From Eledone cirrhosa (Eukaryota), in the NCBI GenBank assembly GCA_964016885.1, contig OZ024765.1, positions 15,934,001 to 15,998,000 of the forward strand: a stretch of 64,000 nt of DNA, given 5' to 3'. This document shows positions 41,442-41,624 of this stretch, piece by piece. Within the stretch, counting starts at the first letter, position 1. Every line of letters begins with the position of its first letter. The notes beneath the pieces were generated by a model. That model did no database searches, was not told where the DNA came from, and saw only the letters and a program-made list of their open reading frames with translations. A program made the position numbers and the translations under genes.

Positions 41442-41624
41442 TGACCCCGACGGCAGAGTTCAAGCCGTTTCGACGGCTATTTCTGGACTCAGAAATAGCC
41501 GTCGAAACGGCTTGAGCTCTGCCGTCGGGGTCAAACATTTTCCTATTACCCAATCTACTACCCTAAGCATGGAGTACTCTGGTGCGTTATGGTCCATCTG
41601 GTTCCTTACCACAACTCCTTCGTT
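41442..41624 (+). mobile_element. Family A fold-back (44 bp arms 41442-41485 / 41490-41533) plus tail; carries only the 3' half of a hammerhead
   Basis: GAAACGGC-TTGAGCTCT-GCCGTC-GGGGTC corresponds to GAAA, stem III, GUC triplet and stem I strand. No CUGANGA half is present. Confidence 0.8.

Follow-up and report, generated by a model that had tools for sequence, protein, structure and literature searches.

The palindromic insertions described here from the genome of Eledone cirrhosa were probably produced by paired reverse transcription: both strands of a (TA)n target would prime reverse transcriptase (RT) on one RNA of a Penelope-like element (PLE), each cDNA would be extended until its template ended at the RNA 5' end, and the pair would then be linked head to head. 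The origin of head-to-head PLE repeats with a one-sided tail is a long-standing puzzle, to which the junctions offer a testable answer: thousands of them, from three lineages in one genome, permit a concrete model with sharp predictions. If the model is true, RNA 5' ends and ribozyme cuts become readable from DNA. The RT class concerned, on which PLE junctions also bear, is the sister of telomerase.

Family A and its parent element

The window analysed is a stretch of 64,000 nt (GCA_964016885.1, contig OZ024765.1, positions 15,934,001-15,998,000, forward strand). Within the repeat family under study, family A, positions are numbered from the G of GAAA as zero, which places the pLTR end at +40, the predicted hammerhead cut after +22 and the A of TTAGT at -18. 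Counts marked 'by eye' are hand counts from the first 100 rows listed by a pattern search.

All nine sites originally assigned to family A carry family sequence flanked by (TA)n runs, and the 3' hammerhead half GAAACGGC..GCCGTC-GGGGTC is present in window copies as originally described. The fold-back ascribed to these copies was found in six of the nine, which are arranged head to head (41442, 54506, 20658, 42817 and, from a divergent subfamily, 7896 and 45916); the remaining three (19561, 39985 and 53340) are not palindromic. Copy 41442, at 41432-41624, consists of an inverted arm followed by the junction, a direct arm and an 80-nt tail. The copies and their parts are as follows.

41432..41489, minus strand: inverted left arm of copy 41442, tail-less, spanning start site 1 (pLTR end) through the TTAGT A (-18)
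41490..41544, plus strand: right arm of copy 41442, from -14 to the pLTR end
41504..41531, plus strand: 3' half of a type I hammerhead (GAAA, stem III, GUC with the predicted cut after 41526, 3' strand of stem I)
41545..41624, plus strand: tail of about 80 nt, the same as the sequence preceding the 5' UTR and ORF in full elements, and ending at start site 2
7896..8062, plus strand: head-to-head copy of the divergent subfamily, tailed arm from +15
19562..19985, minus strand: lone tail-less arm, long enough to include the complete hammerhead and some of the 3' UTR (upper end approximate)
20658..20789, plus strand: head-to-head copy with an internal deletion
39986..40135, minus strand: tailed arm of the divergent subfamily starting G-AGTT, with a 6-7 nt stub on the opposite side
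42817..42912, plus strand: head-to-head copy with an interrupted right arm
45916..46020, plus strand: head-to-head copy of the divergent subfamily with two tail-less arms
53346..53473, plus strand: single tailed arm without a mirror
54508..54690, plus strand: head-to-head copy whose tail-less arm is longer than its tailed arm

The C at 41490 is either the parental -14 base or a cap-derived base from the left arm. Genome-wide, a 28-nt pattern from the tail gave 22,617 exact matches and the head-to-head junction pattern 4,840, with no match to either control. Short-read contigs from one sample span junctions of the head-to-head type, so the palindromes are not a long-read fold-back artefact.

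Judged by its motifs and layout, family A represents the pLTR and tail of an autonomous Penelope-like retroelement of Hydra type, inserted in (TA)n. The predicted Penelope-like identity is borne out by the (TA)n target and by the single parent ORF, in which motifs of an RT plus a GIY-YIG-type domain at the C terminus were read by eye (L092, L098). The L092 ORF contains HSDKTG, RLRWR, CNCPDRSLC, CNLC and CKH, corresponding to the DKT, RWK-like, CxCX5C linker, CxxC and CxH motifs, in agreement with the C-terminal GIY-YIG-type domain and the DKT, RW-basic, CxCX5C linker, CxxC and CxH motifs given for Hydra-clade PLEs in the available text of PMC8557442. Atlas neighbours of the ORF (0.93-0.97) carried HTH_animal, GIY-YIG (21-27% of members) and RVT_1 (13%); pieces of the ORF had no match in Pfam, NCBIfam or PDB. 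Every element copy examined was broken. In fuller copies the tail continues into the 5' UTR and ORF, so the layout of family A is the known pLTR-plus-tail arrangement, and the sequence upstream in copy 19561 is common to many loci. Each insertion has two fixed outer ends, one at the pLTR end and one at the tail end, which are 80 nt apart and both adjoin a TA-like stretch of 2-3 nt that matches the target.

Family A shares with the Hydra clade, as portrayed in the same source, the (TA)n insertion, a pLTR with a hammerhead, partial tandems, an inverted 5'-truncated copy and a one-sided tail. It differs in size, its unit being about 3.3 kb (of which 1 kb is 3' UTR) with a tail of about 80 nt, where Hydra-clade elements are generally <3 kb with tails of 30-40 nt, and also in its U3-A8 or C3-A8 core, its long stem II and the dominance of short palindromes. 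By these sequence comparisons it is a new family within a known clade. The element type, the inverted pLTRs, the tail and the variant core are already known, as far as the accessible portions of PMC8557442, PMC3846280, PMC4209133, PMC2377424, PMC6431247 and PMC11167929 go.

The hammerhead and the position of the arm ends

The CUGANGA half of the ribozyme had been thought to be missing from every copy. Copy 19561, on the minus strand, contradicts this: it carries the 5' strand of stem I and the core CTGAGAA (19665-19659), and beyond the core stem II's 5' strand together with about 300 nt of further parent sequence. Its principal motifs are the following.

19659..19670, minus strand: 5' strand of stem I and variant 5' core CTGAGAA (C3 with A8)
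19645..19651, minus strand: TATA-like TATTTAT in the 5' strand of stem II, at -31 from the TTAGT A
19618..19622, minus strand: TTAGT, initiator-like motif and putative main RNA start, A at 19620
19707..19711, minus strand: CCAAT, at -91 from the TTAGT A

The core of family A is YUGANAA and not the canonical CUGANGA. Its variant form YUGANAA(G) gave 3,513 exact matches genome-wide (control 0), so the expected hammerhead parent, with its long stem II, does exist, and its 5' half is kept in these copies. The genome-wide search for a parent with the 5' half thus succeeded in the YUGANAA form, while the CTGANGA form gave 44 matches that are mostly not parents; these were set aside, most being junction spacers and family B ends. 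Of the first 100 core matches listed, 62 were of the U3-A8 type and 38 of the C3-A8 type (by eye). U3-A8 is a published variant of PLE hammerheads (PMC4209133, available part), and the same text describes a type I motif in the pLTR and, in Schistosoma, U3-A8 core covariation and close oppositely oriented pairs, all of which family A resembles. Family A departs from the hammerheads described there in its 5-bp stem III, its long stem II, the C3-A8 core in 38/100 listed matches and a putative start site that would split the ribozyme.

The three stems of a type I hammerhead can be drawn around the core, with 87.9% of 346 cells in stems I-III paired across 13 hand-picked copies. Two-sided changes in these 13 copies affected four pairs, which lie in stem II and come mainly from two divergent copies. 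Free folding did not yield the hammerhead: the lowest-energy fold was a competing hairpin over GAAA, with the hammerhead about 2 kcal/mol above it, and the fold was not unusually stable (z -0.3 to -1.2). An Rfam scan of the window placed no hammerhead among the 150 of 833 rows listed. Further hammerhead-core-like motifs occur in the window at 43752 -, 43911 +, 44218 -, 59316 -, 46135 -, 46163 +, 27475 -, 30066 + and 43442 -; they apparently belong to other TA-inserted families, some of them in head-to-head pairs.

Arm ends were called in fetched loci, and loci chosen by the parent or CTGANGA searches were excluded from the arm-end counts, the tail and subfamily counts of arm pairs and the -19 base counts. 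Junctions caused over-extension in an initial alignment-based end caller, and a stricter one breaks at some mutations, so single end positions are uncertain by a few bases; the stricter caller found no partner for 55 of 125 tailed arms, some partners having been missed. Ends fell at -10..-26 in 78/176 tailed and 51/92 tail-less arms, an interval that runs from the 3' strand of stem II to the loop edge (loop -30..-22), and 15/176 and 7/92 arms, respectively, reached -60. The predicted coincidence of the palindrome centre with stem II is therefore real, with the cluster on the 3' strand and not at the loop centre. Plotted against the parent structure, the breakpoints concentrate in stem II and are spread over a broad range, and those of family B, introduced below, lie elsewhere. 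The claim of a fold-back at the same place is likewise approximate, since centres in the window span -18/-14 (41442) to about +15 (7896). Unmirrored single arms end at the same place as mirrored ones; the 5' half of the ribozyme is simply not copied, instead of being replaced by a mirror of the 3' half as had been proposed. It would be missing because it lies upstream of the putative RNA start.

Long T/A runs occur at the junction just before AGTCC in L003, L192, L247 and L006, suggesting slippage or untemplated A addition. At L288:3873-4350, tandem 257-nt units run from a TTTAGT boundary through the tail into the ORF start, as expected of a jump off the RNA 5' end.

The palindrome centre as a probable RNA 5' end

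The palindrome centre likely corresponds to an RNA 5' end, where we predict a capped start. Family B, a related element that is sister to family A and has a canonical hammerhead core, serves for comparison. We take TTAGT in family A and TTCATAT in family B to be initiator-like on the basis of the initiator (Inr) consensus. The centre of family B lies at this motif, 122 nt before an intact hammerhead (core at +123 from the boundary), and both arms carry the whole ribozyme, one arm tailed and one tail-less in 11/15 loci. The family B centre bears no relation to stem II, which argues against the original idea that ribozyme structure dictates the shape of the insertion. Among 50 family B junctions listed, 28 are joined on ATAT, at the TTCATAT A, with zero spacer, and the base just 5' of that A is a non-parental G in 13 and an A in 2 (p 0.007; by eye). 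Parents have a C there in 28/29 rows with parent flank. In L1, an extra G at complete 5' ends is cap-derived.

Family A behaves in a similar but less sharp manner. Fifty listed junctions of its divergent subfamily include 29 joins 0-1 nt from the A/G of TTAGT and six with an extra G (by eye); the apical hairpin of this subfamily lies further upstream than these joins. For the main family, 34 of 100 listed arm ends from a selected class showed non-parental G-A-(N)-U3-9, and 11 junctions of that class had G-A ends on both arms with 1-3 nt spacers (by eye). The G excess at -19 in the main subfamilies was not significant (12 G vs 7 A among unexplained bases, p 0.36), and many junction G bases are ambiguous with the mirror arm. 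Arms in L016, L021, L196, L200, L277, L279 and L283 end in GC-GTCC (7 of 15 such ends), with C standing where the -18 A should be and G preceding it, possibly a misread cap-adjacent base. Seven family A parents have CCAAT at -87..-91 and a TATA-like word at -29..-31 relative to the TTAGT A. Family B has CCAAT at -52, and the TATA-like motif is absent from the family B and divergent-subfamily parents examined. Start sites within the pLTR have been described for Drosophila Penelope and for a Chlamys element, according to the available text of PMC8557442 and PMC2377424.

An unlikely alternative, yet the one that fares best, keeps two separately primed cDNAs and lets RNA structure set the boundary, with the RT stopping, or the RNA breaking, at the apical hairpin in stem II. 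The main family A boundary is broad (-10..-26) and coincides with that hairpin from its 3' strand to the loop edge, and the divergent subfamily has a second junction cluster near its own loop, as this explanation would lead one to expect. It does not predict the family B boundary, which is sharp to one base, bears the extra G and lies far from the hammerhead; read-through past the boundary is common to both arms and not independent between them, and the fold is not of unusual stability.

A smaller class of ends lies at the predicted cut site. Ends at +22..+24 made up 10/31 (Poisson p 0.0003) and 5/15 of those within +1..+28, though microhomology cases, deletion cases and arms that are not independent contribute to this excess; both arms end at this site in L279 and L129. 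Occasional hammerhead cleavage in vivo is suggested, and the reading goes no further because some of these ends are microhomology or deletion. Trans-cleavage of half-sites, as originally suggested, may account for the small excess, which cis cleavage of read-through RNA would explain equally well. RT-coding sequence of the same element is joined to arms whose ends lie at the predicted cut site in L122, L129 and L138.

Two arms, probably from one RNA, and possible mechanisms of joining

A single RNA template per insertion event fits the arm data best, because insertions combine one tailed with one tail-less arm, the arms match in subfamily, and long arms occur in pairs. One tailed and one tail-less arm were found in 17/21 junction-ascertained pairs (one tail/tail, three unclear) and in 7/8 incidental pairs. 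Of 95 pairs, 85 could be classified, and in 82 of these the arms shared a subfamily, against a shuffled mean of 25 (maximum 35), a concordance that gene conversion within palindromes could have inflated; two pairs share private variants on both arms, and L004 clearly mixes subfamilies. The 5' core is kept in only 19/248 arms, and 58 of the first 100 5'-core matches listed form 29 head-to-head pairs (by eye). Chimeric A-B junctions number 5 genome-wide vs 370 B-B junctions. In L336, L338, L339 and L340 a family B arm stands head to head with a family A arm, in one case with (TA)n between them.

Arm lengths bear on the original proposal that one tail-primed cDNA folds back at stem II and copies itself. 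A self-copy never extends 5' beyond its template. Among 62 pairs, the tail-less arm was longer in 30, the tailed arm in 25 and neither in 7, an asymmetry that could partly reflect later deletion; in seven long insertions from the parent search (L092, L093, L094, L095, L097, L106 and L108) the tail-less arm exceeded the other by 0.5-2.5 kb, reaching 3,232 vs 832 nt in L092. Snap-back thus fails for most copies, and we regard it as improbable as the general route. It accounts for centres in stem II, for arms of matching subfamily and also for paired long arms, and loop-retaining fold-backs do occur: five of 50 listed junctions from a class of 223 (vs 4,840 of the head-to-head pattern) keep the parent loop in register (by eye), and L308 carries its loop on the tailed arm. 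Against it for the bulk of copies stand the extra G found on both arms alongside spacers of 1-3 nt, the unmirrored arms that end at the same place, the five A-B chimeras, the two-subfamily pair L004 and the lack of any relation between the family B centre and stem II.

Self-priming on an antisense transcript, proposed for the head-to-head repeats of rotifer Penelope elements in the part of PMC3846280 available, where experiments are called for, appears equally improbable here. It is the published reading of the same geometry and agrees with the many perfect zero-spacer palindromes; it would not lead one to expect a non-parental G of the sense strand at initiator-like motifs in both arms, arms that end at the sense hammerhead cut, or spacers that differ between junctions. 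Less probable still is a spread of the short palindromes as whole units copied from a few non-autonomous master elements: 28/50 listed family B junctions are identical, which favours this view, but family A junctions are highly varied and the same junction recurs across different subfamilies.

We therefore return to paired priming on one RNA. Transcription would mostly begin at a capped polymerase II start at the initiator-like motif inside hammerhead stem II, and less often the RNA 5' end would be a hammerhead cleavage product. The RNP would cut both strands of (TA)n, each end would prime at one of the two start sites, and both cDNAs would run to the same RNA 5' end, which would set the inner boundary. 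Priming near the RNA 5' end would give short palindromes, and priming at the 3' repeat paired long arms. The cDNAs might be joined by an end-to-end jump of the RT, matching 1-nt A/T spacers between terminal C's, or by host microhomology end-joining, matching ATAT, AATT and TCGA centres.

In L1 twin priming, as in this model, both target strands prime on one RNA, and complete L1 5' ends likewise carry an extra G. Twin priming inverts a 5' part without duplication, whereas the two family A cDNAs would copy the same stretch and so yield a palindrome. More tentatively, and with somewhat less than even confidence, we propose a two-headed reaction: one RNP would prime both target strands at two sites of a single RNA, the cDNAs would reach its capped or ribozyme-cut 5' end, the enzyme itself would join them, and each would serve as second-strand template for the other. 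Head-to-head pLTRs with a one-sided tail would then generally arise in this way, and in family A a start inside the hammerhead would keep the 5' copy uncleavable.

The closest experimental parallel is Poseidon from Anolis, studied in vitro (PMC11167929). As described in the accessible text, two RT start sites bound its tail, its target is AT-rich, both target strands are cut and extended, and uncleaved RNA is the main template; later steps are left unvalidated there. Its starts are not homologous to the target, unlike the ends of family A with their 2-3 nt TA-like match. A word search of that text returned no link of two-strand extension to inverted structure or the cap. Full-text literature searches, with several older Penelope papers outside their scope, did not find junctions linked to capped or cleaved RNA 5' ends. 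A report on animal retrozymes (bioRxiv 10.64898/2026.07.22.740005, seen in part) has supplements that may bear on PLE-derived short elements.

Two further features lie in the window. A U6 snRNA-like sequence at 9297-9405 on the plus strand (Rfam, 67.5 bits) carries several substitutions and is probably a pseudogene. An ORF remnant at 44795-45603 resembles the restriction-like endonuclease found C-terminally in a non-LTR retrotransposon.
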